A stretch of DNA of 64,000 bases from Chitinophagaceae bacterium (GCA_016721725.1 JADKHN010000001.1:651617-715616), one strand, 5' to 3'. Positions 1 through 49,493 are shown, counted from the stretch's first letter. Notes: generated by a model not told the origin, from the letters alone. Numbers and translations: made by a program.

Positions 1-151
1 TTCTTACACATTCCATTTTGTCACCAAATTTGTCAGCTCTAGAAAACCATACTTTTCCTTGTGATAAAAAGTCTTCCAGCCGATGAAAGGGAATAAATTT
101 AAAAAGAAATATTTCTGTAAGGTCTTTTGTATGATATGATTTCCATGGCAT
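1..151 (-). CDS. Partial cassette ORF, hypothetical protein (N-terminus only; runs off the left window edge)
   Basis: ATG at 151-149 lies 21 nt downstream (minus-strand sense) of the AAC...GTT end of repeat copy A. The frame stays open to position 2 and reads MPWKSYHTKDLTEIFLFKFIPFHRLEDFLSQGKVWFSRADKFGDKMECVR. The FSRADKFGD..E stretch faintly resembles DUF2971-type N-termini (weak). It is too short to appear in the ORF track. Confidence 0.35.
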   Translation of the reverse strand, partial: MPWKSYHTKDLTEIFLFKFIPFHRLEDFLSQGKVWFSRADKFGDKMECVR

Positions 152-171
152 AGTGATAGCTCAAAGGGTTG

Positions 172-370
172 CTTATAACGTCAACGGCTTGGCGTCAGGC
201 GGGATATTAGGATTTCGTCTGCCCGGCCGATGTCGCCCTAAGAATATAATTATTTGAAGTTACCAAAAATGCTCAAGAATAAACGGTCCAGCCCCGAGCT
301 ACTGCCTGGCCATGCACAAATGCCGAAGTTACATTGTCAGACCCCGCTTGCGCCAAACCCCTTGTTAGCA
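172..370 (-). repeat. attC-like structured repeat, copy A (about 199 bp)
   Basis: Closely similar by eye to copy C (3260-3457). Arm 186-203 GGCTTGGCGTCAGGCGGG is complementary to arm 342-359 CCCCGCTTGCGCCAAACC, with one unpaired T. Read on the minus strand the ends are TGCTAAC...GTTATAAG. It starts about 25 nt after the stop of ORF 395..808. Confidence 0.6.
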
Positions 371-394
371 GCATGGCATTTTTGTGCCTCGAAT

Positions 395-808
395 TTAGTT
401 TCTGAATTCAAATTTATCGCCCAATTTTTCAGCAATTGATCTTAATAGAGCCCAACCTTTACTTCCTTTATAATAAATTATGTTCTGCATGTTTTTGGGA
501 TTTTGAGTGTAACCCCAATCATCGATTTGCTTCAGTCCATAAATACCCGAAAACGTAACTGTGTTTTTATTAATTACTGCCATTATTCTGCATTGCCCAT
601 TGATATTTGTGAACTCCTTTGAATAAGTTGTAAGCGTGTCGTAATTGTAATTATCCTTAACTATAAAATCATAATTGACCAGAACTATTTTAACTTTTTT
701 ATATAAATCAATACTGTCTGCAACAGTAACAGTGATTTTAGTATCGCCAAATTTCTGGGCTTTGCAAAAAAAAGGGGAAATTAATATTAAGACAAGTAGG
801 TATTTCAT
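395..808 (-). CDS. Hypothetical secreted protein (cassette ORF)
   Basis: 137-aa ORF with an N-terminal signal-like peptide MKYLLVLILISPFFCKAQ. It is AT-rich and followed by repeat copy A. Confidence 0.6.
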   Translation of the reverse strand: MKYLLVLILISPFFCKAQKFGDTKITVTVADSIDLYKKVKIVLVNYDFIVKDNYNYDTLTTYSKEFTNINGQCRIMAVINKNTVTFSGIYGLKQIDDWGYTQNPKNMQNIIYYKGSKGWALLRSIAEKLGDKFEFRN

Positions 809-1035
809 TTTTTAAATTGCAGTAAAATATATCAGTATTAAAAGAGCTTCGTTTGCTTTGTGTCGTCCTGATTCTGGTTGACTCTTTTTTGCGTTATCCA
901 CAGCTGGATAAGTTGACTGTGTACTTCGCATTTAACTTTGTTTACTCATTTGCAGCCTATGCCTTTGTCAAATCTCCCCAGGCAGAGACCTTGCTTCTGT
1001 AAGCTTTCCAAACCCGTTTTAAAGCTCCGGTGCAT

Positions 1036-1836
1036 TCATGTGCCGCATTGGGGGGTAAGCCACTGTACACTTCGGTGGGGCCGATGCTGATTATAAAAAT
1101 CAATGAACTTCCTTATCTCTATTTTTGCTTCTTCAATATTACTAAAATTAATCTGACGATCGTACGTAAACTCCTCCTTGATCGTTCTGTGTATCCGCTC
1201 CGCTACCGCATTTTCCAAAGGGTCGCCGGTTTGTGTCATGCTGATCTGTATTTGCTGTTCCTCCAAGAGTTTTACATACGCATGGCAACAGTATTGCACT
1301 CCCCTGTCGCTGTGATGAATCAAGGGACGGGTGCTATCCTTTCTGCTCCTGATCGCTTGTTTTAAGGCGCTTATACAGCCTTTTACGCTTAAGGTGTCAT
1401 GAACACAATGACCCACTATTTTCCGCGAATACAGGTCGGTAATAATGCTCAGGTAGCAAAACTTGTCCTGGGGCTTTAACCACAGATAAGTAATGTCGGA
1501 CACCCAGATCTCATTAGCATTCAGTGGTTTAGATGATTCAATAAGATTCTTATACCGGTTGAAATGATGGTAACTGCACGTTGTCTTTGTTCGCCAACGT
1601 TTTGACTTGATCAGCAAATGATGGTTTCTGAGCAGATCAAAGAACTTGTCCCTTCCCATTTTTATTTCCCGCGCTTTAAATTCAGGTTGCAGGCTCTGGT
1701 GAAGGTTTCTGCCGCTGCCCCGCTTCCATATTTCCCGTTTCTTTTTGATCAGCCCAACAATGACTTCTTCCTTTAACAAGCTGTCAGCATTTTGATGATG
1801 CTGCTTATAGTAAGCCTGCTTGCTGCGCTTAAACAC
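1036..1836 (-). CDS. IS3-family transposase OrfB (DDE/rve integrase core)
   Basis: DDE-type motifs VWVSDITYL, HHSDRGVQY and ENAVAERIHRTIKEE. The frame is open upstream of the annotated GVG-type start (GTG at 1836) back into the OrfA 3' end, as expected for an OrfAB fusion. Confidence 0.85.
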   Translation of the reverse strand: MFKRSKQAYYKQHHQNADSLLKEEVIVGLIKKKREIWKRGSGRNLHQSLQPEFKAREIKMGRDKFFDLLRNHHLLIKSKRWRTKTTCSYHHFNRYKNLIESSKPLNANEIWVSDITYLWLKPQDKFCYLSIITDLYSRKIVGHCVHDTLSVKGCISALKQAIRSRKDSTRPLIHHSDRGVQYCCHAYVKLLEEQQIQISMTQTGDPLENAVAERIHRTIKEEFTYDRQINFSNIEEAKIEIRKFIDFYNQHRPHRSVQWLTPQCGT

Positions 1837-1846
1837 CTGGCAAAGC

Positions 1847-2277
1847 TCAGTTACTTTTTCTTTTGGCCTTTGCTTTTGGAAGGAGCTGATTGTTGGGCAC
1901 CATACTTTTTACGATGTCAATTTTGAACTTCTTTTCTGCTATCTCAATAGCATGCTGCCACAGGTCGGCCCGAAGTTCAGCCACCCGAAGCAACTCCCGG
2001 AGTTCCTTATTTTCCTCCTCCAGCTTTTTGTCGTGGATGTTCTTTCTCATTTCGGCAAAGTTAGCCACCGGCGTGCTTCTTTTTCACGGCCATGGAGGCC
2101 CCGGCTTTGGTTGATCCAGTAAAGAATGGTGGCATTGCCTTTAATCCCGTAGAGCAGCGAAGCCTGGCGCTTATTGAGTTTGCCACTCAGTACTTCGTCC
2201 ACAATTTTCTGCTTGAATTCCTCCGTGTAGAATAATTGCTGGGATCCCCTTCGGTTAGAGCTCTGTTTTTTACTCAT
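1847..2277 (-). pseudogene. IS3-family OrfA split into two frames (HTH part 2047..2277, leucine-zipper part 1847..2068)
   Basis: The N-terminal part, MSKKQSSNRRGSQQLFYTEEFKQKIVDEVL...ASLLYGIKGNATILYW, is HTH-like. The C-terminal part, KKLEEENKELRELLRVAELRADL, is coiled-coil-like and lies in the -1 frame. The junction is at an A5 run (plus-strand T run 2080-2084). Confidence 0.7.
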
Positions 2278-2347
2278 TTTTTGTCCTGTTTTTGGTTGAC
2301 TTATCCACTTTTTTGGAGTCAACCTATTTCAGGACTATACAGTTTGT

Positions 2348-2540
2348 GGCTAACGGGCAGGCATTTGCGAAGTTGGGGAATTAGAATTCCGTCAGCCTAG
2401 CTGGTGTCGCCCGGAGAATTTGTTATTTGAAGTTACGAAAATGCCGTTGAAGAAACGGTCAGGCCCCGGGCCGCTGCCGATAAACGGACAAAGCCGAAGT
2501 TACATTGTCAGGCCCCAATTTTGCAAATGCCAATGTTGTG
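2348..2540 (-). repeat. attC-like structured repeat, copy B (diverged)
   Basis: Same layout and conserved centre as copies A and C (TGTCGCCC..AGAAT..TTATTTGAAGTTAC..AAAATGC...GCCGAAGTTACATTGTCAGGCCCC). The arms have a different sequence but remain complementary: 2360-2378 GGCATTTGCGAAGTTGGGG versus 2513-2531 CCCCAATTTTGCAAATGCC. The minus-strand ends are CACAAC...GTTAGCC. It begins about 10 nt after the stop of ORF 2550..3236. Confidence 0.6.
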
Positions 2541-2549
2541 TGCAGCCTA

Positions 2550-3236
2550 CTACTTTTTCCTGCTTGCTTCCATTAGTGCAGGACTACCACAAAATACGAC
2601 AGCGCCTATCAAGTCATAATAAACCAATAAAGCGGCAAACACTACGGGTCTTTTATTTTTTTCATCCTTGAAAATTATATTGTTCTCATCAAATGAAAAG
2701 CCTGAAATTAAATATTTGAAAATGCTCGGATGACCAGAATATTTCCAGTTTGGATTTGTTTGTTGCAATAAATCATGAAATATAAAGCCAAGGGTCATTT
2801 GATTATTTTCACAACCATCTGCAACTACATGAATAGAGTAGTCATCGGGAACTAATTCTCCGTGCTCGTTAAAAAATATTCCTTTGAAGTTTTTGGTGTG
2901 AATATCTAGAGCATTCTTTAGTTTGAAGGTTACACTTTCAACTTGTCCGTGTTGATCGAAATTCAACCTGTTAAATGCTTTTTGTTTAAACAACCCTCGT
3001 ACAGTTTTTTCGCTTATTATTTGGTTTTCTATTAAACTCTCATTGGAAATTCCTATCATGTCTCTTATCTCACTGTCAATTGTAGAAAATTTGTTGTTGC
3101 ATTCGAAACAAGCCGGAACAGTCAATAAGTTTTGCTTATACTCATTTGGTTGCCCCGCGTATAGGTTTTTAGCTGGAATGTGTTCAGACGTTTTGCTTTC
3201 ATCTGTCAGTGTTACGCCGCAGTTATAACATATCAT
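2550..3236 (-). CDS. HNH (His-Me finger) motif protein with an uncharacterised C-terminal domain (cassette ORF)
   Basis: MICYNCGVTLTDESKTSEHIPAKNLY...NLLTVPACFECNNKFS fits CxxC...H...N...CxxCN. I moved the start to the ATG at 3236, because the track start at 3272 is a TTG inside repeat copy C. Confidence 0.65.
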   Translation of the reverse strand: MICYNCGVTLTDESKTSEHIPAKNLYAGQPNEYKQNLLTVPACFECNNKFSTIDSEIRDMIGISNESLIENQIISEKTVRGLFKQKAFNRLNFDQHGQVESVTFKLKNALDIHTKNFKGIFFNEHGELVPDDYSIHVVADGCENNQMTLGFIFHDLLQQTNPNWKYSGHPSIFKYLISGFSFDENNIIFKDEKNKRPVVFAALLVYYDLIGAVVFCGSPALMEASRKK

Positions 3237-3259
3237 AGTGAGAAGGGGTTTTATGGTTG

Positions 3260-3457
3260 CATACAACGTCAAGGGCTTGGCGTCAGGCGGGATATTAGGA
3301 TTACGTCTGCCCGGCCGATGTCGCCCTTAGAATTTAGTTATTTGAAGTTACCAAAAATGCTCAAGAATAAACGGTCCAGCCCCGAGCCACCGCCTGGCCA
3401 TGCACAAATGCTGAAGTTAGATTGTCAGGCCCCGCTTGCGCCAAACCCATGTTAACC
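3260..3457 (-). repeat. attC-like structured repeat, copy C
   Basis: Arms 3274-3291 and 3430-3447 are identical to those of copy A. The minus-strand ends are GGTTAAC...GTTGTATG. The TAA stop of ORF 3452..4018 lies inside the GGTTAAC box. Confidence 0.6.
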
Positions 3458-4018
3458 GCCGTATTTATTGTCTATGATGGTTAATCGATTAGTTTTCTTA
3501 AGGCATTCTATTAATTGCCTAGAATTTCGTGGGTCTGACCCTTTGAACCCATATTGAAAGCTAATTTCATTTTGACTTACAAAGGCATTTACTCCTAAAG
3601 GAGCTAAGGAAACATGCTTATCTATGAAGCACCCTCCGTAAACTATCTGACCATTTATAACCAAGGCAAATTGTCTAACTTGACGTACAGGTAAGTTTAG
3701 CATTTCCATCCTTTTTTCCACTGAAATTCCATATTCAGCCACATGAATTTGCTTTGAATGCCTTTTTGAACCTTTGTTGTTCATAGAGTACTTTTCAATT
3801 GTGTATGAAACAAGTTCAGAGTTTTTAATAAAGGCAGTGTCCTCAAGATCTGAGAGAATCGGCATAAATGAAACTGGCCTCTTAGAAACAGGGTCAAACA
3901 TAGGGTAGCTTTTTTTAAGAAGGTAAATTTCAATGCTGCAATCAAAAGAGCCCTTTATTTGAGAATATGAAACATGGGTAGAAAATAAGAGTACTATTAT
4001 TGCGAAAAGCTTAGGCAT
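3452..4018 (-). CDS. Hypothetical secreted protein (cassette ORF)
   Basis: 188-aa ORF with signal-like N-terminus MPKLFAIIVLLFSTHVSYSQ. It is AT-rich and its stop is embedded in repeat copy C. Confidence 0.6.
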   Translation of the reverse strand: MPKLFAIIVLLFSTHVSYSQIKGSFDCSIEIYLLKKSYPMFDPVSKRPVSFMPILSDLEDTAFIKNSELVSYTIEKYSMNNKGSKRHSKQIHVAEYGISVEKRMEMLNLPVRQVRQFALVINGQIVYGGCFIDKHVSLAPLGVNAFVSQNEISFQYGFKGSDPRNSRQLIECLKKTNRLTIIDNKYGG

Positions 4019-4058
4019 TTGTCAATAGGTTAGGAAATGGGAGCTGCCAAAATATGGC

Positions 4059-4137
4059 GGTTAACTCTTTAATAGACGCTGAATAGGATTGCCCCAAAGC
4101 TGCGTCTATTTGGGTATCGGTTTGATAACGATTGATC
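4059..4137 (-). repeat. Possible short, divergent attC-like hairpin at the array boundary
   Basis: GGTTAAC at 4059-4065 is followed by a perfect 9-bp inverted repeat, AATAGACGC (4071-4079) and GCGTCTATT (4113-4121), then GTTTGAT. It lies 41 nt upstream of the ATG of ORF 3452..4018. Confidence 0.3.
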
Positions 4138-4315
4138 TATATAAATATACGTAATTGAAAAGAGGGGCAAACAATTTCAAATACGCAATCCAGGAGCCTC
4201 CCTGTTTTTCACCCGGTCCCCAATATCATACCAGCCCCCACCCCCTTCACCGGGTTGATCAACTCATTCCTTACCGGCTCTCCGAACTGTATCCCGCTGG
4301 ATAAGACCGCAAAGA

Positions 4316-4783: not shown

Positions 4784-6271
4784 ATGGCCTTAAGTCAGGG
4801 ACTATACCAAAAGCAACTCCAGAAACTGTCTCCCCAGCAGATCCAGCTGATGAAACTGTTGCAGGTGCCTACGGCCATACTGGAAGAGCGCATCAAGGAG
4901 GAAATGGAGGAAAACCCGGCCCTGGAACTGGATGAAGAAGGGCATGAGGACGAATATGATGAATCGAAGGATGAATTCAAGGAAGACGAGACCGAGGATT
5001 TTGAAGCGGACGGCAGCGAGGATGAATATGAGAACATCGACATCAGCGAATACGTGAGCGAAGGTGACGACGACGTGGGCGACTATAAGCTCCGGGACGA
5101 GAACTATCCCGAGATCGACGACAGCCGCGTCATCCCCCACAAGGTGGAGACGGGCTTCAACGAACTGATGATGGAGCAGCTGGGACAACTCAACCTGGAC
5201 GAACACCAGCAACAGGTGGCTGAACAGATCATCGGCAACCTCGACGACGATGGGTACCTGCGCCGCGACATTTCTTCTATCGTAGATGACATGGCCTTCC
5301 GGCAGAACATCATCACCTCCGAACAGGAGATCGGCCAGCTCGTCTTGCAGATCCAGCAATTCGACCCTCCCGGCATCTGCGCCCGCAACCTGCAGGAATG
5401 CCTGTTGTTACAACTGGAACGGAAATCGGATGAAGGGGCCCATGTGGAAATGGCCATCAAGGTGATGGAGAAATATTTCGATGAGTTCACCAAGAAGCAT
5501 TACGAGAAGATCCAGCGCGGCCTCAACCTCTCTGATGATCAGCTGAAAGAGGTCATCAACCAGATCATCAAACTCAATCCTAAACCCGGAGGCACGATCG
5601 GCGAAACGGGCAAGAATGAGAACTATGTGGTGCCCGATTTCTTCATATTCAACAATGCCGGCAAGCTGGAACTCACCCTGAATTCCAAGAACGCCCCCGA
5701 CCTGCGCATCAGCGAAGGCTACCGCGACATGCTGAAAGAATACGACCGCGGCAGCAAGAAGGATAAACGCCAAAAAGAGGCCGTGCTCTTCATCAAGCAA
5801 AAGATCGACGCGGCCAAATGGTTCATCGACGCCATCAAGCAAAGACAGAACACCCTGCTCAATACCATGGAAGCCATCATGAATTACCAGCGTGAGTTCT
5901 TCGTCACCGGCGATGAGACCACCCTGCGGCCCATGATCCTCAAATACATCGCGGAAGCCACCAACCTCGACATCTCAACGGTGAGCCGGGTGGCCAACAG
6001 CAAGTTCGTCCAGACGGAATTCGGCACCTACCGGCTCAAGTTCTTCTTCAGTGAAAGTCTGCAGACCGACAGCGGCGAGGAAGTGAGCACCCGGGAGGTG
6101 AAAAAGATCCTGAGCGATCTGATCGAAGCGGAAAGCAAGAAGCATCCGCTGAGCGACGAGCGGCTGACCGAGCTTTTACAGGAAAAAGGGTATAATATTG
6201 CCCGCAGGACCGTGGCCAAATACCGGGAACAACTGAATGTGCCCGTGGCGAGGCTGAGGAAAGAATTATAA
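4784..6271 (+). CDS. rpoN: RNA polymerase sigma-54 factor
   Basis: Gln-rich N-terminus (QKQLQKLSPQQIQLMKLLQ), an acidic linker and the C-terminal RpoN box IARRTVAKYREQL. Length is 495 aa. Confidence 0.95.
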   Translation: MALSQGLYQKQLQKLSPQQIQLMKLLQVPTAILEERIKEEMEENPALELDEEGHEDEYDESKDEFKEDETEDFEADGSEDEYENIDISEYVSEGDDDVGDYKLRDENYPEIDDSRVIPHKVETGFNELMMEQLGQLNLDEHQQQVAEQIIGNLDDDGYLRRDISSIVDDMAFRQNIITSEQEIGQLVLQIQQFDPPGICARNLQECLLLQLERKSDEGAHVEMAIKVMEKYFDEFTKKHYEKIQRGLNLSDDQLKEVINQIIKLNPKPGGTIGETGKNENYVVPDFFIFNNAGKLELTLNSKNAPDLRISEGYRDMLKEYDRGSKKDKRQKEAVLFIKQKIDAAKWFIDAIKQRQNTLLNTMEAIMNYQREFFVTGDETTLRPMILKYIAEATNLDISTVSRVANSKFVQTEFGTYRLKFFFSESLQTDSGEEVSTREVKKILSDLIEAESKKHPLSDERLTELLQEKGYNIARRTVAKYREQLNVPVARLRKEL

Positions 6272-7224: not shown

Positions 7225-7225
7225 A

Positions 7226-7382
7226 GGCCGGCCCCCTCCATCTCCCCCGAAGGGGGAGGGAAAGCCCCCTCCAAACCTCCCCCGAAGGGGGAGGCTTCAG
7301 AGAGCAAAATACTTTTAAAGAGGTTTCAATTTCGTAGAGTCTTCGGACCCTCCCCCTTCGGGGGAGATGGAGGGGGCTGGCC
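7226..7382. repeat. Composite GC-rich palindromic element (three ~30-bp units, two direct and one inverted)
   Basis: The unit is GCCCCCTCCA..CTCCCCCGAAGGGGGAG, at about 7230 and about 7264 (direct) and 7348-7382 (inverted). The outer 33-bp arms 7226-7258 and 7348-7382 are complementary with one mismatch. Confidence 0.8.
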
Positions 7383-7383
7383 T

Positions 7384-8331: not shown

Positions 8332-9231
8332 ATGAATAAGAAGATACTGGTCATTTATTATTCCCAATCGGGTCAATTGGGTGAGATCCTGGATCGTTTC
8401 ATTGAACCCCTTCAGCGATCGGGACATACCATTGAAAAGGTCTGTGTTCAACCCGTCACCCCGTATCCTTTCCCCTGGAAGGGAAAAAGTTTCTTTGCCG
8501 TGATGCCCGAATCGGTGAGGGAAGTGCCCGCACCCTTACAACCCTTTCAGTTAAAAGAATCCCGTTACGACCTGGTGTTGCTGGGATACCAGGCCTGGTT
8601 CCTTTCCCCCAGCATCCCCGTGAATTCGATCCTGAAGACCGATGCCGTAAAAGCCGTTCTCAAAGACACCCCGGTCATAACCATTACCGGTGCCCGAAAT
8701 ATGTGGATCAGCGCGATGGAAAGGATCAGGTTCATGCTAAAAGAAGCGGGCGCCCGTCACGTGGGCAATATCGCGCTGGTGGACAAACATCATAATTTCA
8801 TCAGCTTCGTCACCATCTTTTACTGGATGTTCAAAGGAAAGAAGGATCGATGGCTGAATCGATTTCCCAAGCCGGGCGTGTCGGATGAGGATATCCTGAA
8901 TACGTCGGTATTTGGCGCGATCGTTGAACCCCATCTCGCTTCGGGCAACTGGGACGGATTGCAGGACGAGCTCCTGGCAAAAAAAGCCGTAGAGGTAAAA
9001 TACAATCTGATGTTCATAGAATCCAAGGCCAAGCGCATTTTCACGATCTGGGCAAGGTTCATTTCCAGGAGAAAAAAAAGAACAGCCTGGCTTGTTGTAT
9101 TCAAATATTATCTTTTAATTGCACTGTTTATAGCAGCTCCCATCATATTAACGGTTGATGCGATCTTTTTCAAACCCTTTTTATCAAAGCGGATCAAAAG
9201 GCAAAAACAGTATTTTTCAGGCGTAAACTAA
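8332..9231 (+). CDS. darA: Dialkylresorcinol-condensing enzyme DarA-like protein
   Basis: About 300 aa with a flavodoxin-like N-terminus KILVIYYSQSGQ and a C-terminal TM segment. It sits immediately upstream of a KAS III-like gene, which is the canonical darAB arrangement in flexirubin clusters. Start placed at the ATG at 8332. Confidence 0.7.
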   Translation: MNKKILVIYYSQSGQLGEILDRFIEPLQRSGHTIEKVCVQPVTPYPFPWKGKSFFAVMPESVREVPAPLQPFQLKESRYDLVLLGYQAWFLSPSIPVNSILKTDAVKAVLKDTPVITITGARNMWISAMERIRFMLKEAGARHVGNIALVDKHHNFISFVTIFYWMFKGKKDRWLNRFPKPGVSDEDILNTSVFGAIVEPHLASGNWDGLQDELLAKKAVEVKYNLMFIESKAKRIFTIWARFISRRKKRTAWLVVFKYYLLIALFIAAPIILTVDAIFFKPFLSKRIKRQKQYFSGVN

Positions 9232-9240
9232 CTTACAAGA

Positions 9241-10389
9241 ATGTCTTTCAACGAAGTCTACATTGTCAATACTTCTTCTTATTTCCCGAACGACCCGGTT
9301 TCGAATGAAGAGATGGAGGAATACCTGGGGTTCATCAACGAAAAACCTTCCAAATCCCGGCGTATCGTATTACGCAATAACGGTATAAAGAACCGATACT
9401 ATGCCCTTACCCGCGACGGGAAAGTGACCCATACCAATGCGCAGATCACCGCGGAGGCCGTGAAAGCGGTCACCGGTAATACGGAATCCGGGCTGAAAGC
9501 CATCGACCTCCTGTCTTGTGGCACTTCCACACCCGACCAGGTGATGCCTGCCCATGGTGTGATGGTACACGGGCTGCTCCCGGAGACCAATGCCATCGAA
9601 GTGGTTTCTCCTGCCGGCGTTTGTTGCGCGGGTATGCACGCCCTGAAATACGCTTACCTGTCGGTCAAGACCGGTGAGGCCCGGAACGCGGTGGCCACCG
9701 GATCCGAGCGGTTCTCCACCCTGCTCACCGCTTCTGTTTTTGAAGACGAGGCACAACAACTCAAGGCGCTTGAAGAAAACCCCTATATCAGTTTTGAAAA
9801 GGAATTCCTGCGCTGGATGTTGTCTGACGGAGCCGCCGCCTTCCTGATGAAGGATAAACCCAATGAGACCGGCATCAGTCTGAGGGTGGAATGGCTTGAA
9901 GGCGTTTCCTATGCGAACACCATGGAAGCCTGCATGTACAGCGCCAGTGAAAAACTTCCGGATGGCAGCCTGAAAAGCTATATGGAATATTCACCCGAGG
10001 AGATCATCCACAAATCCATACTCAGCATCAAACAGGATGTGAAACTGCTCAGCGAGAACATCGTCCCCCTGGGTGGCGTAGGCCTCAAAGCCGCACTGGA
10101 CAAGCATGGTGTAAAATCATCCGAGATCGATTATTTTCTTCCCCATATGTCGAGCGAATTCTTCAAAGACAAGATCTTTCAGCGGCTCATCGAGAATGGC
10201 ACCGGCATCACGTATGATAAATGGTTCGTCAACCTCACCACGGTAGGCAATGTCGGGGCCGCTTCCGTTTACCTCATGGTGGACGAGCTGTTCCACAGCG
10301 GCAAGCTGAAAACGGGTGATAAGATCCTGCTGCTGGTTCCGGAAAGCGCCCGCTTTTCCTATATGTACAGCCTGCTCACGGTATGCTGA
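9241..10389 (+). CDS. darB: KAS III (FabH)-like ketosynthase, DarB-like
   Basis: 382 aa. Thiolase-fold motifs are GVCCAGMHA (Cys), PHMSSEF (His) and GNVGAAS (Asn). It is adjacent to darA. Confidence 0.8.
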   Translation: MSFNEVYIVNTSSYFPNDPVSNEEMEEYLGFINEKPSKSRRIVLRNNGIKNRYYALTRDGKVTHTNAQITAEAVKAVTGNTESGLKAIDLLSCGTSTPDQVMPAHGVMVHGLLPETNAIEVVSPAGVCCAGMHALKYAYLSVKTGEARNAVATGSERFSTLLTASVFEDEAQQLKALEENPYISFEKEFLRWMLSDGAAAFLMKDKPNETGISLRVEWLEGVSYANTMEACMYSASEKLPDGSLKSYMEYSPEEIIHKSILSIKQDVKLLSENIVPLGGVGLKAALDKHGVKSSEIDYFLPHMSSEFFKDKIFQRLIENGTGITYDKWFVNLTTVGNVGAASVYLMVDELFHSGKLKTGDKILLLVPESARFSYMYSLLTVC

Positions 10390-10473
10390 TCCGGCCCCTA
10401 AACTAATCGGCCGGATAACGCATAATGCTTTAATTTCGTTCACACGCTTAAACCGTCCACCAAAGCCTGTTTT

Positions 10474-10881
10474 ATGAAAAAAGAAGATATCCCGCAGGAT
10501 GACGGCGCACTCAACAAACTGACCAAGGAAGTGGTCTATGCCGTCGATCAATCGGGTAAATACACCACGGAACTGAGTACCGGATGGGAGGTGAAGGCCA
10601 ATGCGCTTGACCTGGCCTGGAAGGACATCGGGAACCGGATCGAAAAGGCCCGCCAACAGGTACTGAACCGGGAAGCCAGTCCCCTGCTTTATTTCATGGA
10701 ATTACGTCTGATGGATATCGGGATCGTTTCCGCCTATACCGGCTTCTGGAAATGGACCATCCGCCGGCATATGAAGCCCGGCGTATTTGAGAAACTTCCC
10801 GAGAACAAATTACAGCGCTATGCCGAGGCCTTCAATGTCTCCCTCGAAGAATTAAAATCGATGAACGTTCATGAAGACTGA
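10474..10881 (+). CDS. Hypothetical protein (possible C-terminal HTH-like segment)
   Basis: 135-aa ORF whose 3' end overlaps the next gene by 11 nt, so it is operonic. No clear motif. Confidence 0.55.
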   Translation: MKKEDIPQDDGALNKLTKEVVYAVDQSGKYTTELSTGWEVKANALDLAWKDIGNRIEKARQQVLNREASPLLYFMELRLMDIGIVSAYTGFWKWTIRRHMKPGVFEKLPENKLQRYAEAFNVSLEELKSMNVHED

Positions 10882-11887
10882 ATTTCAACACCTCCAGGCC
10901 GCACATTGTGAGAACGGGGTGACCACCAACCTGCTGCGTGCCGTTGGCGCCCATCAACTCACCGAACCGCTTTCCTTTGGCATTGGTTCCGGCCTTTTTT
11001 TCATCTATATCCCCCTGCTCAAGATCAATAATGGTCCGGCATTCGCTTTCCGGACCATGCCCGGACTGATCTTTAAAAGGACCTGCAAATCACTGGCCAT
11101 CCCGGTGGTCAGGAAAAAATTCAGTTCCAGGGAAGCGGCGGAACAGGCGCTGGAAGACTGTCTTCGTGCGGGTCAGCCGGTCGGATGCCAGGTGGGTGTT
11201 TATTACCTGACCTATTTCCCCAAGGAATACCGCTTTCATTTCAATGCGCATAACCTCATTGTTTATGGAAGAGAAGAAGATCAATATCTCGTCAGTGACC
11301 CGGTCATGGAAAACGTCACCTCCTTAAGCCGTTACGAGCTGGAAAGGGTCCGTTTTGCCAAAGGAGCATTGGCGCCGAGGGGACAGCTTTATTATCCCCG
11401 GGAGAAAAAGATCGTCACGGACGACCAGCTGCGCAGCGCCATCAAAAGCGGCATTAAAAGAAATGTCAGGGACATGCTCTACATACCCGGCAGCATCGCC
11501 GGCGTGAAGGGTATCGCCTATACCGGAAAAAAAATAAAGAAATGGAGGGACAAACTGGGGCCTGAAAAGGCCGGGCTTTACCTGGCCCAATTGGTGCGTA
11601 TGCAGGAAGAGATCGGTACGGGCGGCGGAGGTTTCCGCTATATCTATGGCGCTTTTCTGCAGGAAGCCTATGCCTTTCACCCCATCGATACCCTGCCCGA
11701 AGTGTCTAAAATGATCACCGAGGCCGGCGACCTCTGGCGTGCCGCGGCTGTTCAGGCGGCAGGTATCTATAAAGGCAGGATCGGCAGCCAGGCCGATTTT
11801 GACCAGATGGGTGATTACCTGATCAAGATATCCGGGATCGAAAAAGAGGCTTTTAAAACACTGGCTAAAATCAACTGGAAGGCATGA
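10871..11887 (+). CDS. BtrH N-terminal-domain-like (papain-like Cys) protein
   Basis: 338 aa. N-terminus LQAAHCENGVTTNLLR resembles the BtrH_N catalytic-Cys region. This is recalled family similarity, not computed. Confidence 0.5.
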   Translation: MKTEFQHLQAAHCENGVTTNLLRAVGAHQLTEPLSFGIGSGLFFIYIPLLKINNGPAFAFRTMPGLIFKRTCKSLAIPVVRKKFSSREAAEQALEDCLRAGQPVGCQVGVYYLTYFPKEYRFHFNAHNLIVYGREEDQYLVSDPVMENVTSLSRYELERVRFAKGALAPRGQLYYPREKKIVTDDQLRSAIKSGIKRNVRDMLYIPGSIAGVKGIAYTGKKIKKWRDKLGPEKAGLYLAQLVRMQEEIGTGGGGFRYIYGAFLQEAYAFHPIDTLPEVSKMITEAGDLWRAAAVQAAGIYKGRIGSQADFDQMGDYLIKISGIEKEAFKTLAKINWKA

Positions 11888-12633
11888 GCTTGACCGCTGT
11901 CAGCATAGATAACCTGGGTTTTTCTTACCCCGGCCAGGACAAACCCTGCCTGCGGAACCTCTGCCTGGAGATCGGCGCCGGTGAACGGTTCGGCCTGTTC
12001 GGACCGAACGGTGCCGGTAAAACGACATTAATGAACCTCATGACCGGGCTCTTGAATATCCAGGAAGGCCATATCAAACTCTTTGGCCAGGAAGTGAGCC
12101 GGCACCAATTGTCGATCCGCAAACTATTCGGTTTCATCCCCCAGGAACTTTCCTTTTACCGCGAACTAAGCCCCGTAGAGAACATGGCTTTCTTCGGAGC
12201 CTGGGCCGGTATGGACAAAAAACAGATCCGGGACAAGACGACCGAATTGCTGGAAGTGCTCGGTCTGAGCGAAGTGCGGCATAAGCAGGTTGAAAAATTC
12301 TCCGGCGGTATGAAACGCCGTGTCAACCTGGCCATCGGGGTGATGCACAACCCCCGGATCATTTTCCTGGATGAACCCACGGTTGGCGTTGACGTACATA
12401 CCCGGCATGCCATCATCAATTACCTGAAGGCGCTGAACAGCAACGGCACCACACTGGTCTATACCTCACACCAGCTGAGTGAGGCCGAAGACCTTTGCGA
12501 CCGGATCGCCCTGATCGATGAGGGCCGCATACTGGCGCATGATACGCTGGAGAACCTGCTGGAAAGCCATCGTGAAGAAGGCCTCGAAGGTCTCTTCATT
12601 AATTTAACCGGAAAAAAATTCAGGGACAACTGA
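11884..12633 (+). CDS. ABC transporter ATP-binding protein
   Basis: Walker A GPNGAGKTT, signature FSGGMKRR, Walker B IIFLDEPTVGVD. Confidence 0.9.
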   Translation: MSLTAVSIDNLGFSYPGQDKPCLRNLCLEIGAGERFGLFGPNGAGKTTLMNLMTGLLNIQEGHIKLFGQEVSRHQLSIRKLFGFIPQELSFYRELSPVENMAFFGAWAGMDKKQIRDKTTELLEVLGLSEVRHKQVEKFSGGMKRRVNLAIGVMHNPRIIFLDEPTVGVDVHTRHAIINYLKALNSNGTTLVYTSHQLSEAEDLCDRIALIDEGRILAHDTLENLLESHREEGLEGLFINLTGKKFRDN

Positions 12634-13913
12634 TGCAGAAACTACTGGCCACGATCATCAAGGACATCCGCATCCTTACCCGGGACAAACTCGGCCTCAT
12701 CTTCATGTTCGTGATGCCTATCGTGCTGGCCATTGTGATCACCGCGGTTCAGAACAGCACTTTCGAGATCCTCAATAAAAATAAAGTCCCCCTGCTGCTC
12801 TGCAACAAGGACACCGGCCGTGCCGGCATCGACCTGGTGAAAGCCATCGATAAGGTGGGCATGTTCGAGATCAAGACCATCAGCGCAGATCAGGACCAGG
12901 CGCAGATCTCCGAAAGAATGCATGCCAAAGACGCCGTGGTAGCCATCATCATCCCGGCGGATTACAGCAGTAAAACGGAAGCCCGGTGCAAGAGCATCGC
13001 CTCCAAAGCCCTGAAGAATTTCGGGATGGAAGTGGATACCGTCAGATCCGGCCACGACAGCCTTCAGCCCATCACCTTATTATATCACCCGGTATTGCAG
13101 GAATCCTTCCGGCACTCGATGAACGGCGCATTGAAAAGCGCGCTGCAAATGGTGCAAAGCCGTTTGGTATTGAAGAACCTCTATTATTCACTCAACGAAA
13201 AAGAACTTCCCGATTCCCTGGAGAACCAGATCCTCAACAACCAGGTTGAGATCAACGAGATCCCCGTATCCAGGGATGGCAGCCGGAGTATCCCGAATGC
13301 CACACAACATAATATACCTGCCTGGACCATCTTCGCGATGTTCTTCATCGTGATCTCCCTGGGCGGCAGCGTGGTGAGGGAGAAACTGAGCGGTAGTTTC
13401 GTCCGGTTGAAGACGCTTCCCACCAATTATTTCCTGGCCCTGGTCTCCAAACAGATCACCTACCTCCTCATCACCCTGCTGCAGGTAGCGGTGATCTTTT
13501 CCATCGGCATCTGGTTATTCCCGCATATGGGACTGCCCAAACTGATTTTGCCGGCTGATATTACCGGGGTAATCATTGTTTCCTTAATTTGCGGGTGGTG
13601 TGCGGTCAGTTATGCCATTTGCATCGGCGTATTCGCCCAAACACAGGAACAGTCGAACGGGGTTGGGGCGGTTTCCATTGTTTTGATGGCCGCCATCGGC
13701 GGATTGCTGGTACCCAGCTTCGCCATGCCACAGTCGTTCCAGTTCGTGATGAAGCTCTCTCCTTTGCATTGGTGCCTGGAGGCTTTTTACGGCCTTTTCC
13801 TGGAAGGAGGTAAGCTGAGCGATATCATGTACAATATTTTGCCTTTATTGGGTATCACCGGGTTCTTTCAGCTGATCATGCTGTACGGCTTGAAAAGAAA
13901 GAACCTGATCTGA
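12633..13913 (+). CDS. ABC-2-type transporter permease
   Basis: 426 aa with an N-terminal TM segment, a large loop and five or so C-terminal TM segments. It is start/stop coupled to the ATPase gene. Confidence 0.8.
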   Translation: MQKLLATIIKDIRILTRDKLGLIFMFVMPIVLAIVITAVQNSTFEILNKNKVPLLLCNKDTGRAGIDLVKAIDKVGMFEIKTISADQDQAQISERMHAKDAVVAIIIPADYSSKTEARCKSIASKALKNFGMEVDTVRSGHDSLQPITLLYHPVLQESFRHSMNGALKSALQMVQSRLVLKNLYYSLNEKELPDSLENQILNNQVEINEIPVSRDGSRSIPNATQHNIPAWTIFAMFFIVISLGGSVVREKLSGSFVRLKTLPTNYFLALVSKQITYLLITLLQVAVIFSIGIWLFPHMGLPKLILPADITGVIIVSLICGWCAVSYAICIGVFAQTQEQSNGVGAVSIVLMAAIGGLLVPSFAMPQSFQFVMKLSPLHWCLEAFYGLFLEGGKLSDIMYNILPLLGITGFFQLIMLYGLKRKNLI

Positions 13914-13924
13914 AAAATAAAATT

Positions 13925-14188
13925 ATGGAGACCGAAGAATTAAAACTGCAATTAAAGAAACAGATCATCGAATTCCTCAACCTGATCTCCGTTAAACCCG
14001 AGGACATCAAGGACGATGAGCCCCTGTTCGGGGAAGGGCTGGGGCTTGACTCCATCGACTCCATCGAGCTGATCGTATTGCTCGGCCGGGAATACGGCAT
14101 CGACATCAAAGACCCCAAGGAGGGCCGCAAAGTACTGGTGGACATCAATACCATGGTGGCCTATATCGAACAACACAGAACCAAATAA
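13925..14188 (+). CDS. Acyl carrier protein
   Basis: 87 aa with phosphopantetheine-attachment motif GLGLDSIDSIELI. Confidence 0.9.
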   Translation: METEELKLQLKKQIIEFLNLISVKPEDIKDDEPLFGEGLGLDSIDSIELIVLLGREYGIDIKDPKEGRKVLVDINTMVAYIEQHRTK

Positions 14189-14195
14189 CCTTTCA

Positions 14196-15386
14196 TTGAG
14201 CAGGATCTTTGTCACAGGCATGGGAATCGTCAGCGCCATCGGGCGATCCCTGGTGCAAAACCACCTGTCGCTCCGGGAAGGGAAATGCGGCATCCGCAAC
14301 GAACTCGACCTCTTCCCGTCAAAATATGCCGGTGTATTGCCCTTTGGTACGGTGCCCGTCAGCAATAACGAACTCCGCCAGACGCTCCATGCGCAAGAAC
14401 CCGGCGTTACCCGAACCTCACTGCTTGCCTTACACGCATTCAACGAAGCCATTGCCGACAGCGGATTAAGCCCGGAACAACTAGCAAACACCGATACCGC
14501 CCTGGTTGGCGCAAGCACGGTCAGCGGCATGTGCCTGACCGACGAGTTGTACCACGATGCCAATAAGAAAGAAGCGGGATCCCCCTATCTCTCCTCTTAC
14601 GACAATGCGGCCGTTACCCTCTACCTGCAAAATCGTTTTGGTATGAAGGGAGTCATCAATACCATCAATACCGCCTGCTCTTCTTCGGCCAACTCCATTG
14701 TGTATGGCGCGAACCTCATCCGGCACGGACTGGCCAAACGGGCCATTGTCGGCGGCGCCGACAGCCTGGCCAAATTCACCATCAACGGGTTTAACTCGCT
14801 CCACATACTTTCCCCGGATAAATGCCAGCCCTTCGACGAACAGCGAAAAGGGTTGAACCTCGGTGAAGGCGCCGCCTTCCTGGTATTGGAAAGGGAAGAA
14901 GATACCACCGGAAAAAAAGTGTATGCCGAATTCACCGGTCATGGCAATTCCAATGACGCCTATCATCCTTCCTCTCTGTCTGATGAAGGCGAAGGCCCTT
15001 ACCTGTCCATGAAAGAAGCGCTGGACCGGGCAAGACTGGATCCCGCCCAGATCGGATTCATCAACGCCCATGGCACCGGCACCGAGAACAACGACCTGGT
15101 GGAAAGCGTGGCGATGATCCGCCTGTTCAAGAACCCGCCCGCCTTCGCGTCCACCAAATCCAATACCGGCCATACCCTGGGAGCATCCGGAGCCATTGAG
15201 GCCGTGTACAGCATATTGAACCTGGCCGAACAGGAGATCTATCCCGGTCTGCGTTTTGAACATCCCATCGCGGCGACCGGTTTGATCCCCGTACAGTCGT
15301 ACCAAAAAACGGCATTACAGCACGTGATGTCCAATTCATTCGGCTTTGGAGGAAATTGTTCATCCCTGATCTTTTCAACAATATGA
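14196..15386 (+). CDS. Beta-ketoacyl-ACP synthase (KS, FabF/type II PKS-like)
   Basis: Motifs NTACSSSANS (Cys), NAHGTGT (His) and GHTLGASG (His). TTG start at 14196. Confidence 0.9.
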   Translation: MSRIFVTGMGIVSAIGRSLVQNHLSLREGKCGIRNELDLFPSKYAGVLPFGTVPVSNNELRQTLHAQEPGVTRTSLLALHAFNEAIADSGLSPEQLANTDTALVGASTVSGMCLTDELYHDANKKEAGSPYLSSYDNAAVTLYLQNRFGMKGVINTINTACSSSANSIVYGANLIRHGLAKRAIVGGADSLAKFTINGFNSLHILSPDKCQPFDEQRKGLNLGEGAAFLVLEREEDTTGKKVYAEFTGHGNSNDAYHPSSLSDEGEGPYLSMKEALDRARLDPAQIGFINAHGTGTENNDLVESVAMIRLFKNPPAFASTKSNTGHTLGASGAIEAVYSILNLAEQEIYPGLRFEHPIAATGLIPVQSYQKTALQHVMSNSFGFGGNCSSLIFSTI

Positions 15387-16435
15387 GGCCCCTGTTTTAC
15401 ATACACCAGTCGAGTTGCATTTCCCCGCAATCCAGCTTTGAGCCGGTGGATATCGATCAGCTGTTTGAGCCGGCGGACAATAAACTGATGGCGCGGGAGC
15501 CTTCCTACGACGGGATCCCGCCCGGTATATTACGCAGGATGGGTAAAGCGGTACGAATCGGCGTGGGCGCCGCGCTGCCCATCATCAAAGGGCCTGCGGA
15601 GATCAACGGCATCATCATCGGCACGGCCAACGGCGGCATGGAAGATTGCATCAAATTCCTGAACCAGATCATCCAATATGAAGAAGGCCAGCTGACACCG
15701 GGTAATTTTGTACAAAGCACGCCCAATGGCATAGCGGCCCAGCTCGGACTGATCAGCAAGAACCGGTCGTACAACATCACGCATGTTCACCGGGGACTTT
15801 CCTTTGAGAACGCCGCGATCGACGCGGCCATGCAACTGGCCGATCATCAGGATAACAGTTATCTCCTGGGTGCGGTGGATGAGATCTCGGCCTATAACTA
15901 CAATATAGACTGGCTGGGCGATTGGTTCAAAGACGAGAACACCGGTTCCGGTACGCTTTACAACTCCGGTACCAAGGGCAGTATCGCCGGGGAAGGCGCT
16001 GCCATGTTCCTGGTCAATCGGCAAAAAGAAAACGCGGCCGCCAGTATCATTGCCATAAAAACCCTTCATACCCCTGATTTGAACCTGGTACAACAAAGCC
16101 TTGTAAATTTCTTAGAACAGAACCTGGCTGAAGGAGAAAGGATCGATCTGCTGCTGAGTGGAGAGAATGGAGATGCCCGGATCGACCCGTACTACCATGC
16201 CTGCGAAACCCTGATGGGCGAAGGAACGACCATTGCCCGCTTCAAGCACCTGTGCGGAGAATTCACCACCGCTTCGGCGATCAGTTGCTGGCTGAGCTGC
16301 CATATCCTGCAACAGCAACGCATCCCGGAGCATATGCTGAAACGCAAGGGCAACCCAAATGCCCTGAACCGGATCCTGGTTTACAATAATTACCGGGGAG
16401 AGCAGCACGGCTTCATGTTACTAGGCCGGGCTTGA
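15383..16435 (+). CDS. KS-like protein lacking the catalytic Cys context (chain-length-factor-like)
   Basis: The ATGA overlap with the KS stop supports a start at 15383. Thiolase-fold similarity (SIAGEGAAMFLV) without the CSS and HGTGT motifs. Confidence 0.7.
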   Translation: MRPLFYIHQSSCISPQSSFEPVDIDQLFEPADNKLMAREPSYDGIPPGILRRMGKAVRIGVGAALPIIKGPAEINGIIIGTANGGMEDCIKFLNQIIQYEEGQLTPGNFVQSTPNGIAAQLGLISKNRSYNITHVHRGLSFENAAIDAAMQLADHQDNSYLLGAVDEISAYNYNIDWLGDWFKDENTGSGTLYNSGTKGSIAGEGAAMFLVNRQKENAAASIIAIKTLHTPDLNLVQQSLVNFLEQNLAEGERIDLLLSGENGDARIDPYYHACETLMGEGTTIARFKHLCGEFTTASAISCWLSCHILQQQRIPEHMLKRKGNPNALNRILVYNNYRGEQHGFMLLGRA

Positions 16436-16442
16436 TGACCGA

Positions 16443-18017
16443 TCAGAGTTTCATCCAGACCAGTTTGGCCAGTTTATCCCTGCCGGAAGGCATGGCCCGG
16501 AGGGTTACAAACACATTTCCCGTCTTGTCGTAGGCCGATACGCCAAAGGAGGCGATATTGTGTTCCTTGTTGCTTTCCGGTTTTCCAAAAAGATATTGCC
16601 GGTTAGGGATGAGCTCACTGCCGGCTAAAGGCAGGTAAAACGCGTCGCAATCGCTGATACCAATGACCTTGATGGGCGCTTTATCTTTCTCGATCTTCGA
16701 GATGTTCCGCTCCGTATCGTTCAGCAACAGGTAGCTGAGTTCGCCCTTGTTGATATAAGCGAATTTCTTGTACTGGTTCCCAAAACCGTAATCGGCCGAA
16801 TAGTAAAACTCCTGCTCGATCCAGTTGCTCTTGGGAACCAGGTAGGTGCTGCGCATCTCCCCGTACCGGTCATGAACACTCACCGCAATATTGTTGAGCT
16901 CCAGGTGTGAATTGGAATAATTCCCGTTTTGTGTTGTGATGATGGCTTCTTCTTCATAAGCGATCGAGAACCCTCCGTCGTCATTGATGTAGATGTCCCG
17001 CAAGACCCCGGTGAAATCGTCTTTTTTCTTCAGCCAGCTATAGGATTTGCCATATACTTTATCCGAAAGGGCCGCCGCGATCGTCTTGATCGAACGATGG
17101 GAGACCGGGTCTACGATGGTAAGATAGTTATATACCGTCTGCGATCTTTCTTTTTCGAGCAGGCTGGCCACAACGATCAATTGCTGCGTGATCGGATTGT
17201 ACCGGATGGCGCCGTGATGCACCACGCTGTCCTTCGGCAGGTCGATCTGGTAAAAGTTGACTGAACCGCTTCCCTTGGGAAGGTCTCCCAGCAGGATCTC
17301 GCTTGACTTTCCGCCCGATGCCCGGGTATTGTATCCGTTTACAAGCAGGCAAACCCGCTGGTCATCCAGCAATTCCATATCCAGGAAATCCAGGTATTTG
17401 TATTTCTCCTCCGGAGAAGAATAATAAGTACGGCTGATTTGTTTGTGGTCGGGGCCAAAGACCAGGATCTCGATCCGCTTATTCCGGTCAGACTCGAAGG
17501 TGTTGAATGCCGCGACAGCGTAACAATTGCCCGACTGACTGGCATGCGCATAAAATTGCGGCATCTTAACGCCGCCGAACATCATGGCATAACCCTGGCC
17601 CATGTTTATCTTCATCAGTTCTTTTACCCGATCCTCTTTTTTAAGCCGTCCGGTCTTGCCGTCAAGGACCAAACGGGTCAGAACGGGCATTTTATCCTCG
17701 AAGTTGCTGATCAGGATGACCACGTCGCCATTGATCTCAAAAGCCCCTGAAATACTGGCGCCCTTGGTCAGCTTTTCATATCCGGGTTCGATCGTTGTGG
17801 CGACCTTCTCTTTATGGTTGGGATCGTACACCCTGATGTCAATGCCTTCTTTGAGGGTTACGCGAAAAAAGACCGTACCGCCGCTTTTCAACTGTATCAG
17901 CTGGGTATAACCGCTTTTAGGCTCGTCGAATTCCGGGCCCTCGGCGATCTTGGTGAACTGGGCATTCAATGATAAAAAAGATAGTGTCAATACAATAAGA
18001 GCGGATATCCTCTTCAT
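16443..18017 (-). CDS. Hypothetical secreted protein
   Basis: 524 aa with signal peptide-like MKRISALIVLTLSFLSLNAQ. No recognisable catalytic motif. Confidence 0.65.
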   Translation of the reverse strand: MKRISALIVLTLSFLSLNAQFTKIAEGPEFDEPKSGYTQLIQLKSGGTVFFRVTLKEGIDIRVYDPNHKEKVATTIEPGYEKLTKGASISGAFEINGDVVILISNFEDKMPVLTRLVLDGKTGRLKKEDRVKELMKINMGQGYAMMFGGVKMPQFYAHASQSGNCYAVAAFNTFESDRNKRIEILVFGPDHKQISRTYYSSPEEKYKYLDFLDMELLDDQRVCLLVNGYNTRASGGKSSEILLGDLPKGSGSVNFYQIDLPKDSVVHHGAIRYNPITQQLIVVASLLEKERSQTVYNYLTIVDPVSHRSIKTIAAALSDKVYGKSYSWLKKKDDFTGVLRDIYINDDGGFSIAYEEEAIITTQNGNYSNSHLELNNIAVSVHDRYGEMRSTYLVPKSNWIEQEFYYSADYGFGNQYKKFAYINKGELSYLLLNDTERNISKIEKDKAPIKVIGISDCDAFYLPLAGSELIPNRQYLFGKPESNKEHNIASFGVSAYDKTGNVFVTLRAMPSGRDKLAKLVWMKL

Positions 18018-49022: not shown

Positions 49023-49493
49023 TGTGCTTGACCTGTTCTGTAGCCCCTGTGGCAAAAGATCTTTCCCCATTCCCGTTCGGTATTCAAAAAAGCCGGTTCG
49101 GAGGTAAAATTGCCCTTTTGGTGGCCTTTTAGTTTTTAACCCCCATTTCCCGATGTATGTTTACATCAGAAACCAATTATCCAATATCCTGAAAGAAAGT
49201 CCAAATCCAAATCCTTAAGAAAACCGGTGGTTAAATATCCAAATCCTTAGAAAAAACCAATTACCACTGAACAAAAAAAGCTTCAATGCCTCCGTTAAAA
49301 CGGGGGCATTCGGTTTTAAAGCCCCCTCCATCGCGATAGCTATCGGGATAGAGGGGCTTTTTAATGGCTATTAACATTTCAATCACCATAATTTATTAAA
49401 CAGGTTTTTGATGTGTGTTCAGTCGCGGCTAACTTTGCGGCCGCCATCAGCGAAATAGTTCAGGCTGGTGTTTTTTCAATCTAAAACCCATTT

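Follow-up and report, generated by a model that had tools for sequence, protein, structure and literature searches.

Integrons are the textbook device of gene capture, and standard surveys find them to be nearly absent from Bacteroidota. A system of this phylum that resembles them has been described under the name rAID-1, i.e., recombinase-associated arrays with "repetitive intergenic sequences reminiscent of integrons" (10.1101/471110). According to Ross et al. (2019), such arrays are defined by a 5′ XerD-like recombinase with at least 44% identity to BF9343_RS08045, at least two co-oriented genes with a G+C content of at most 41%, repetitive intergenic motifs, and orphan immunity genes as cargo. 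Here, we analyzed a 64,000-nt stretch of DNA from a Chitinophagaceae bacterium (GCA_016721725.1, JADKHN010000001.1:651617-715616), which in its full length is referred to as the window. Positions 1-4065 are likely to represent the promoter-proximal part of a recombinase-less mobile cassette array, which would belong to an integron-like platform of Bacteroidota with rAID-1 as its described relative. We found no paper on Chitinophagaceae arrays or on the anatomy of their sites.

Cassettes and their junctions

Four small open reading frames (ORFs) occupy the region 1-4140, all of them on the minus strand (Table 1). The repeat family is present in three copies, one behind each of three small ORFs that are AT-rich and likewise on the minus strand. 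In minus-strand orientation, a copy spans 186-190 nt from its AAC box to its GTT box. The distance from the ORF stop codon to the AAC box is 0-28 nt at each repeat, and the TAA stop codon of ORF4 overlaps the sequence GGTTAAC at 3451-3457. The GTT box is followed by the next ATG at a distance of 26-45 nt, except where an insertion sequence (IS) of the IS3 family separates repeat B and ORF2. A profile search re-found the three repeats with E values of 1e-37 to 1e-50, and the next-best match in the 64 kb had an E value of 0.17. The G+C content is 0.31-0.45 across positions 1-4200, compared to 0.50-0.57 from position 4800 (the rpoN side) onward. In stretches centred on the ORFs it amounts to 0.31-0.38, which places at least two co-oriented genes within the 41% limit of rAID-1. 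An earlier interpretation made from the sequence alone (hereafter, the sequence-only reading) had described small minus-strand ORFs that are each followed by the same repeat, a stop codon inside the first box, and an AT-richer region with an IS. Our ORF, repeat, IS, and composition data agree with this description. The repeat is real, too, and the length of ~195 bp assigned to it was close to the measured one.

Over approximately 15 nt, and with one conserved C·A mismatch, the GTT-tail of a repeat (N) complements the AAC-head of the following one (N+1) and not its own head. For site C, the tail GTTATAAGC complements the head GCTTATAAC of the next site, that of cassette 4, without exception (9/9). 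Likewise, GTTGTACGCC matches GGCGTACAAC of the site that follows the site of cassette 4. At the upstream end of the array, GTTAACCGCC in front of ORF4 matches the head of site A, GGCGGTTAAC, and the junction GTTAACCGCCATATT is the reverse complement (14/15) of the repeat A head AATACGGCGGTTAAC. The variable tetranucleotide after the GTT of repeat N and that before the AAC of repeat N+1 were fully complementary (4/4) in 14 of 21 successive repeats from six loci. The corresponding values were 3.7% for 681 unrelated pairs and 11% for the repeat's own head. Among the failures are two pairs of repeats that are not direct neighbours and one pair whose head was misaligned. In true cassettes, whatever follows the crossover is part of the next cassette, and the tail(N)/head(N+1) pattern conforms to this. 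The TT... end of each site was found inside the next cassette, in agreement with a crossover at G/TT (slashes mark the junction). We conclude that an ORF-site-ORF-site cassette grammar with the crossover at or near G/TT, as the sequence-only reading had proposed, is strongly supported by the tail/head complementarity, together with the covariation of the rebuilt sites and a strain-specific split at GTT described below.

Anatomy of the recombination sites

Twenty sites were rebuilt as they would occur in the excised circle, that is, from the head and core of repeat N+1 and the tail of repeat N. In these sites, 88.8% of the cells pair, compared to 33-47% when the partner was slid. Both sides had changed in 22 of the 33 stem pairs, and none of 500 shuffles reached the observed values. 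RNAalifold independently recovered the same two helices, with nothing conserved in the centre of ~155 nt. A site thus consists of a 15-bp outer stem (...NNNNAAC / GTTNNNN...), a 3×5 internal loop, an inner stem of ~19 bp, and the ~155-nt centre. Direct motifs of the type GGC(N1-2)GAC occur at fixed positions in the centre (2.5 per site; shuffles contain 0.07, and the opposite strand contains none). To our knowledge, three internal direct motifs of this kind are absent from classical attC sites.

The AAC and GTT triplets are invariant (20/20), and GTT is followed by a purine. Hence, of the integron consensus boxes RYYYAAC and GTTRRRY to which the repeat ends had been assigned, the AAC/GTT core and the purine held, and the other positions of the 7-mers did not. 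The 3×5 internal loop lies at the position expected for the spacer. Clear bulged bases are lacking, and conserved mismatches or wobbles (C·A in 20/20, T·G in 18/20, and A·C in 15/20 sites) occur in their place. The stems of the bottom strand are more stable in 18 of the 20 sites, and the conserved C·A mismatch of the top strand (20/20) corresponds to a G·T pair on the bottom strand. We infer that a folded single strand, probably the bottom strand, is the substrate of recombination.

The repeats are intergenic, moderately G+C-rich, and bounded by terminal inverted repeats. The same properties would be found in a dispersed miniature inverted-repeat transposable element (MITE) or repetitive extragenic palindrome (REP), or in an element that acts at the RNA level between genes as a terminator, promoter, or leader. 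In addition, the centre of ~11 copies carries a weak Bacteroidota-type promoter-like motif (TTTG...TAnnTTTG). This motif was, however, not more frequent than in shuffles (8.0 vs. 7.4 of 10), and Rfam matched no family in the array and only noise at 7225-7383. A dispersed element, which the sequence-only reading had named as a possible refutation of the cassettes, is contradicted by the distribution of the copies: the three copies in 64 kb are all in the array, and the 40-odd copies in ~200 kb of related loci all lie on the gene strand, within or edging a run of co-oriented genes. An RNA element is contradicted by the outer stem, which joins the tail of one repeat to the head of the next one, 0.5-7 kb apart in the transcript. 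Pairing over this distance makes sense only for an excised circle. We regard both explanations as largely refuted and scarcely credible, and retain the repeats as recombination sites of a cassette array.

Recombinases, mobility, and genomic context

As the sequence-only reading had stated, no tyrosine recombinase of the Xer/IntI type was found in the window, neither by tblastn nor by a profile hidden Markov model search of six-frame ORFs of at least 80 aa (best E value 0.71). Two top matches, P0108 and P0050, were considered as the recombinase of the window's own genome and rejected, as both derive from other metagenome-assembled genomes (MAGs). Related loci, numbered L009 to L027 in the following, were reached solely via a cassette protein and then via the recombinase. 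In L009, L014, L015, L017, and L018/L019, the repeat family starts 110-360 bp downstream of a co-oriented gene for a tyrosine recombinase of ~400 aa. This recombinase family has many members, which are 68-90% identical between Ferruginibacter, Agriterribacter, and Puia. The array-linked protein aligns end to end with XerA/XerC-like structures. In the comparison with IntI4 (2A3V), by contrast, only residues 12-181 and 246-318 aligned, leaving residues 182-245 unaligned and ~40 residues of the IntI-specific insertion missing. The array-linked recombinases reached 170-189 bits with TIGR02249, the NCBIfam model of integron integrases, whose cut-off is 265 bits. A tyrosine recombinase with an insertion between patches II and III, the hallmark of IntI, is thus encoded neither in the window nor by the linked genes, and for this reason the array is not a classical integron. 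The term "integron-type", which the sequence-only reading had used, does not apply in the strict sense, given Xer-like recombinases of this kind and sites longer than attC. Its suggestion of an uncharacterised attC class or an unrecognised cassette platform gained support.

The array might still be the remnant of a classical integron, a cluster of attC sites lacking integrases (CALIN), with true attC sites that are served by an IntI encoded elsewhere in the genome. CALINs are common, integrons have been reported in Bacteroidota (PMC8618304; PMC9024848), and this idea is in keeping with the AAC...GTT boxes, the G/TT-consistent crossover, an imperfect palindrome in which a spacer stays unpaired, and co-oriented ORFs that look promoter-less. 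Every related array with a neighbouring recombinase, however, has a co-oriented Xer-like enzyme that lacks the IntI insertion and scores below the TIGR02249 cut-off. The sites themselves also speak against attC, as they are 186-190 nt long, form an outer stem of 15 bp, contain three direct motifs in their interior, and lack consistent extrahelical bases. IntegronFinder 2.0 reports only In0 elements and one complete integron (Salinibacter) in Bacteroidetes. This nearly empty record, although the recombinase family is present in Ferruginibacter sp. SUN106 and Agriterribacter sp., suggests that the standard IntegronFinder model does not call these sites. We consider a CALIN very improbable, and a platform with its own, Xer-like recombinase the better description of the cassette array.

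The linked recombinases possess an extra N-terminal alpha/beta domain of ~85 residues (model pLDDT ~85), for which no Pfam match was obtained. We infer that this domain binds the three internal motifs of the sites. Full-length homologues with 34-37% identity are encoded on plasmids of Chryseobacterium, Rufibacter, Pontibacter, and other Bacteroidota. In the two plasmid loci examined (Chryseobacterium and Rufibacter), the homologue again heads a co-oriented array. On a Bacteroides ovatus plasmid (L022), a recombinase with 43% identity over the core heads an immunity-gene array with rAID-1 features, which contains SMI1/KNR4, Imm26, PoNe, and Tdi1 immunity genes. The hairpins of this array are 55-60 nt long and obey the same tail(N)/head(N+1) rule.

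Cassettes are reused in different arrays. Homologues of ORF4 with 60-63% identity occur in arrays of other Chitinophagaceae MAGs (L009, L011, L012, and L013), which use a diverged version of the window repeat. In L011, the ORF4 cassette is an internal one, and its boundaries (GTTAACCGCCAT...ACGGCGGTTAAC) coincide with those in the window. Turnover at the junction was seen between L014 and L015, which share an identical recombinase and flanks with 94% identity. The two loci split exactly after ...CTACGT/GTT, and their first cassettes differ. A second array in L018, a mini-array without a recombinase, is headed by a copy of the attI region of this locus (85% identity) and sets a precedent for recombinase-less arrays like that of the window. 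The cassettes of the relatives include a type VI retron, DndD/PbeC-like genes, a methylase together with a BsuBI/PstI-type restriction enzyme, a PIN toxin pair, and, once, in L018, SMI1_KNR4. Some L014 cassettes are multi-gene units of 7 kb.

Several of the related arrays carry IS110-family genes. A transposase of this family splits a recombination site in L009 (8573/9914), and genes on the opposite strand lie inside the arrays of L020 (13284-14285) and L021 (15950-17008). A further one is located just beyond the last detected site of L018 (20396-21194). The IS1111-attC group targets integron attC sites, and the element in the L009 site recalls that group. Contigs often stop within 0.4-8 kb past the recombinase gene (L015, L017, L025, and L027), as would be expected if assemblies break at the repeated sites. 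MAGs probably contain fewer of these arrays than actually exist.

Taken as a mechanism, a cassette would comprise one ORF, or a whole defence operon in some relatives, and a 186-190-nt site. In the excised circular form, the site would fold into the outer stem, the loop, the inner stem, and the motif-bearing centre. A Xer-like tyrosine recombinase, presumably encoded elsewhere in the genome or else lost, would cut at or beside G/TT, excise cassettes as circles, and insert circles at the GTT junction.

The array continues beyond the window. In the source contig, two further repeats are found directly to the left, and the leftward order is ORF1 (DUF2971), a fourth site, a frameshifted lipoprotein-like cassette, and a fifth site. 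The array of the source contig thus holds at least five cassettes and extends further left than the sequence-only reading had described. Past the last site lies a stretch of 229 nt that shares 88% identity with the leader of a Dnd-like cassette of 7.4 kb from another genome, and to the left of this stretch follow a PLD-family nuclease and Eco57I/MmeI-type genes. The non-coding leader occupies 15678-15906 in L005, immediately to the left of the window, and 12404-12631 in L014. A core of 50-70 nt recurs in L009, L011, and L014, and the leader may represent a shared regulatory module of large defence cassettes.

The rpoN gene of the window is 85-93% identical to rpoN of Ferruginibacter-like Chitinophagaceae. 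The nearest rpoN relatives (91-93% identity) have the order DegT - small ORF - rpoN, and array, restriction-modification island, and repeat are all missing there. The position of the array next to rpoN, which the sequence-only reading had noted, is incidental; the nearest relatives keep the rpoN locus without any array. The right border of the island was not placed exactly by DNA alignment to the nearest relatives (77-81% identity), and gene order was used instead. At the empty site of the nearest relative (L023 9480-9530), the DegT/small-ORF intergenic region contains a hairpin, GCATCGTTAACAGCGATGC, with GTTAAC in the loop, and the array of the window starts with ...AAAGA/GTTAAC. The hairpin is possibly the kind of secondary site that is used for ectopic insertion.

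Several observations weigh against a mobile, integron-like array. No recombinase is encoded within the 64-kb window or the 6.5 kb to its left, and action in trans is a hypothesis. Single array copies fold no better than shuffles, as DNA or RNA (z -0.5 to +1.5), and the case for structure rests on covariation because single-copy folding is uninformative. The upstream junction of the window has no DNA similarity to the attI regions of other loci. Moreover, exact-pattern scans with conserved blocks did not find the exact window repeat in GTDB representative genomes or JGI metagenomes. The pattern match on a genome contig, at a Rhodoferax TRAP transporter locus, was due to chance, and the matches on metagenome contigs were likewise unrelated sequence. 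Since only chance matches were obtained, the exact repeat sequence is lineage-specific. Two assemblies of this population carry the same array (the window is 99.5-99.7% identical to contig JADJKA010000001.1 of GCA_016706245.1), and they give no direct sign of recent shuffling. Finally, the IS insertion and the frameshifted cassette left of the window fit a decaying array.

The absence of a recombinase from the window and its left flank, the IS3 insertion, the frameshift, and the identity of the array in both assemblies are what a fossil would leave behind, namely an array that was built by the proposed mechanism and is now inert, its recombinase lost or its sites unused. Yet the five sites of the array have intact stems and motifs at 77-94% identity, Nanopore errors may account for the frameshifts, and in the L018 genome an array next to a recombinase coexists with a separate mini-array that has no recombinase and carries its own copy of the attI region. 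A fossil therefore appears unlikely to us, and we favour an array whose cassettes may still be mobilized in trans.

Table 1. Features of the cassette array in the window; slashes mark junctions
Feature	Coordinates	Strand	Description
Array upstream junction (attI-like position)	4056-4065	minus	Minus strand ...TCTATTAAAGA/GTTAACCGCC; first cassette from G/TT, 4065/4064
Cassette 1 (ORF4 + site A)	3267-4064	minus	ORF4 3452-4018, 188 aa, signal peptide, no family match
Recombination site A	3265-3453	minus	AAC 3453-3451 to GTT 3267-3265; 15-nt outer-stem extension up to 3468
GGC(N1-2)GAC motifs of site A	3424-3431, 3374-3381, 3305-3311	minus	GGCCTGAC, GGCTGGAC, and GGCAGAC, respectively; direct; three also in sites B and C
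Cassette 2 (ORF3 + site B)	2354-3266	minus	ORF3 2550-3236, 228 aa; weak N-terminal HNH_5 match, E = 0.012, below cut-off
Recombination site B	2352-2537	minus	Most divergent copy, 77% identity; stem changes compensatory relative to A and C
IS3-family IS	about 876-2324	minus	Helix-turn-helix orfA 2047-2322, rve orfB 1036-1836; inverted ends GGTTGACTC...GAGTCAACC; in the 5′ leader of cassette 3
Cassette 3 (ORF2 + site C)	179-2353	minus	ORF2 395-808, 137 aa, signal peptide, no family; IS interrupts the upstream part
Recombination site C	177-366	minus	AAC 366-364 to GTT 179-177
Cassette 4 start (ORF1)	1-178	minus	ORF1 1-151 (partial), ATG at 151, leaves the window; full ORF is a 237-aa DUF2971 protein in the source contig

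Pfam, NCBIfam, and PADLOC yielded no function for ORF2, ORF3, and ORF4. The ORF1 protein matches the PADLOC candidate defence gene PDC-S31 (E = 3e-17). The IS sits ~30 nt past the GTT junction of cassette 3 and has an orfA/orfB frameshift. The same IS is present together with ORF2 on two short Logan contigs (SRR10931997 and SRR10932013). Inside the repeats, the window and the GenBank record disagree at five positions (185, 341, 3391, 3412, and 3420), and at 341 and 3420 the GenBank copies share the base with the other four array sites. These differences could be strain variation, polishing errors, or the result of gene conversion.

Outside the array, a 36-nt inverted repeat with 97% complementarity and nested G+C-rich hairpins is located at 7225-7383, just downstream of a PAP2-like gene. 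The Rfam matches there are sub-threshold noise (plant microRNA and signal recognition particle models), and this place holds most of the indels that separate the window from the GenBank record. Genes characteristic of aryl-polyene/flexirubin-type biosynthesis occupy about 9000-17000, as judged from Pfam matches along the source contig (ACP_syn_III_C, BtrH_N/DUF4872, ABC-2 membrane protein, PP-binding, and Ketoacyl-synt_2). A 31-nt palindrome at 49315-49364 is 84% complementary and has overlapping arms. Three tandem units of 252 nt (68-69% identity) at 56603-57406 lie within a 1909-aa minus-strand ORF (55427-61156); they are 84-aa protein repeats and not a DNA element.

Comparison with known systems

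The results suggest that Bacteroidota use a parallel gene-capture platform that is missed by current tools, because the recombinase fails the IntI test and the sites, with ~125-190 nt in Chitinophagaceae, exceed classical attC. The anatomy of the sites, with their stems, conserved mismatch, and three internal motifs, is clear and testable. As a tentative generalization, about which we are rather less confident than about the array itself, Bacteroidota may have an integron equivalent of their own, which arose without the domain specific to IntI. A Xer-like recombinase to which an N-terminal domain was added would capture circular cassettes via folded single-stranded sites with a long outer stem, which in Chitinophagaceae would carry three arm-type GGC(N1-2)GAC motifs. 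rAID-1 of gut Bacteroidales would then be no more than the short-site branch for immunity genes, the Chitinophagaceae branch would store complete anti-phage systems, and recombinase-less arrays would be serviced in trans. The results link gut rAID-1 immunity arrays to environmental arrays with retrons, restriction-modification, and Dnd-like systems. They point to a new supply of compact defence genes and to an additional, independent example in which recombination of folded DNA can be studied.

Classical integrons and CALINs (PMC9024848, PMC8618304) share with the array the circularisable single-ORF cassettes, in which the 3′ part of the site falls into the next cassette. Hairpin sites with conserved structure and variable sequence, the AAC/GTT boxes, and the bottom-strand bias appear to be shared as well, and the 3×5 loop may correspond to the unpaired spacer. 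Integrase-less arrays exist in both cases, and the IS110-family element inside a site (L009) is a further parallel. Unlike in integrons, the recombinase gene points in the same direction as the cassettes, and the domain specific to IntI is missing from the enzyme. The sites are also far longer than attC; their outer stem of 15 bp includes a conserved mismatch, direct repeats occur in their interior, and clear extrahelical bases are lacking. Sedentary chromosomal integrons that serve as anti-phage stores (bioRxiv 10.1101/2024.07.02.601686) are similar with respect to chromosomal arrays, lineage-specific homogenised sites, and compact defence cassettes. They differ in recombinase family and phylum, and some of the cassettes described here are multi-gene units of 7 kb (L014).

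Lambda Int is a heterobivalent integrase with arm-type sites, and XerCD acts on the folded single-stranded attP of CTX-phi. The likeness to these enzymes is by analogy only and concerns the extra N-terminal domain with direct motifs away from the crossover, and a Xer-type enzyme acting on a folded strand. The polyimmunity loci located beside XerC/D recombinases (Zhang et al., 2012, PMC3482391) resemble the array as co-oriented, strain-variable tandem arrays that sometimes lie beside a Xer-type recombinase. Unlike the array, they were described by gene content, with recombination sites left undefined, and the window cassettes match no immunity family.

The array is not a member of rAID-1 in the strict sense, because it has no adjacent recombinase, different cargo, and much longer sites (Ross et al., 2019, bioRxiv 10.1101/471110; PMC12247911). 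In its way of working, it nonetheless resembles both rAID-1 and classical integrons. The sites comprise 186-190 nt compared to about 55-60 nt, the junction is GTT instead of ATT, and the sites contain three internal GGC(N1-2)GAC motifs. The N-terminal domain of the Chitinophagaceae recombinase is different as well, and its identity of 43% is just under the 44% limit, a value measured in relatives against the B. ovatus protein and not against BF9343_RS08045. As to cargo, none of the cassette proteins in the window matches an immunity family, whereas rAID-1 carries orphan immunity genes against interbacterial toxins; Chitinophagaceae cargo extends beyond such genes to anti-phage systems (retron, restriction-modification, and Dnd-like). 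Both systems nevertheless share the overall plan of a XerD-like recombinase followed by a co-oriented array of short, low-G+C genes with repetitive intergenic motifs, which in the window are represented by the repeats. The B. ovatus locus, with its 43%-identical recombinase core and hairpins that follow the same tail/head rule, connects the two.

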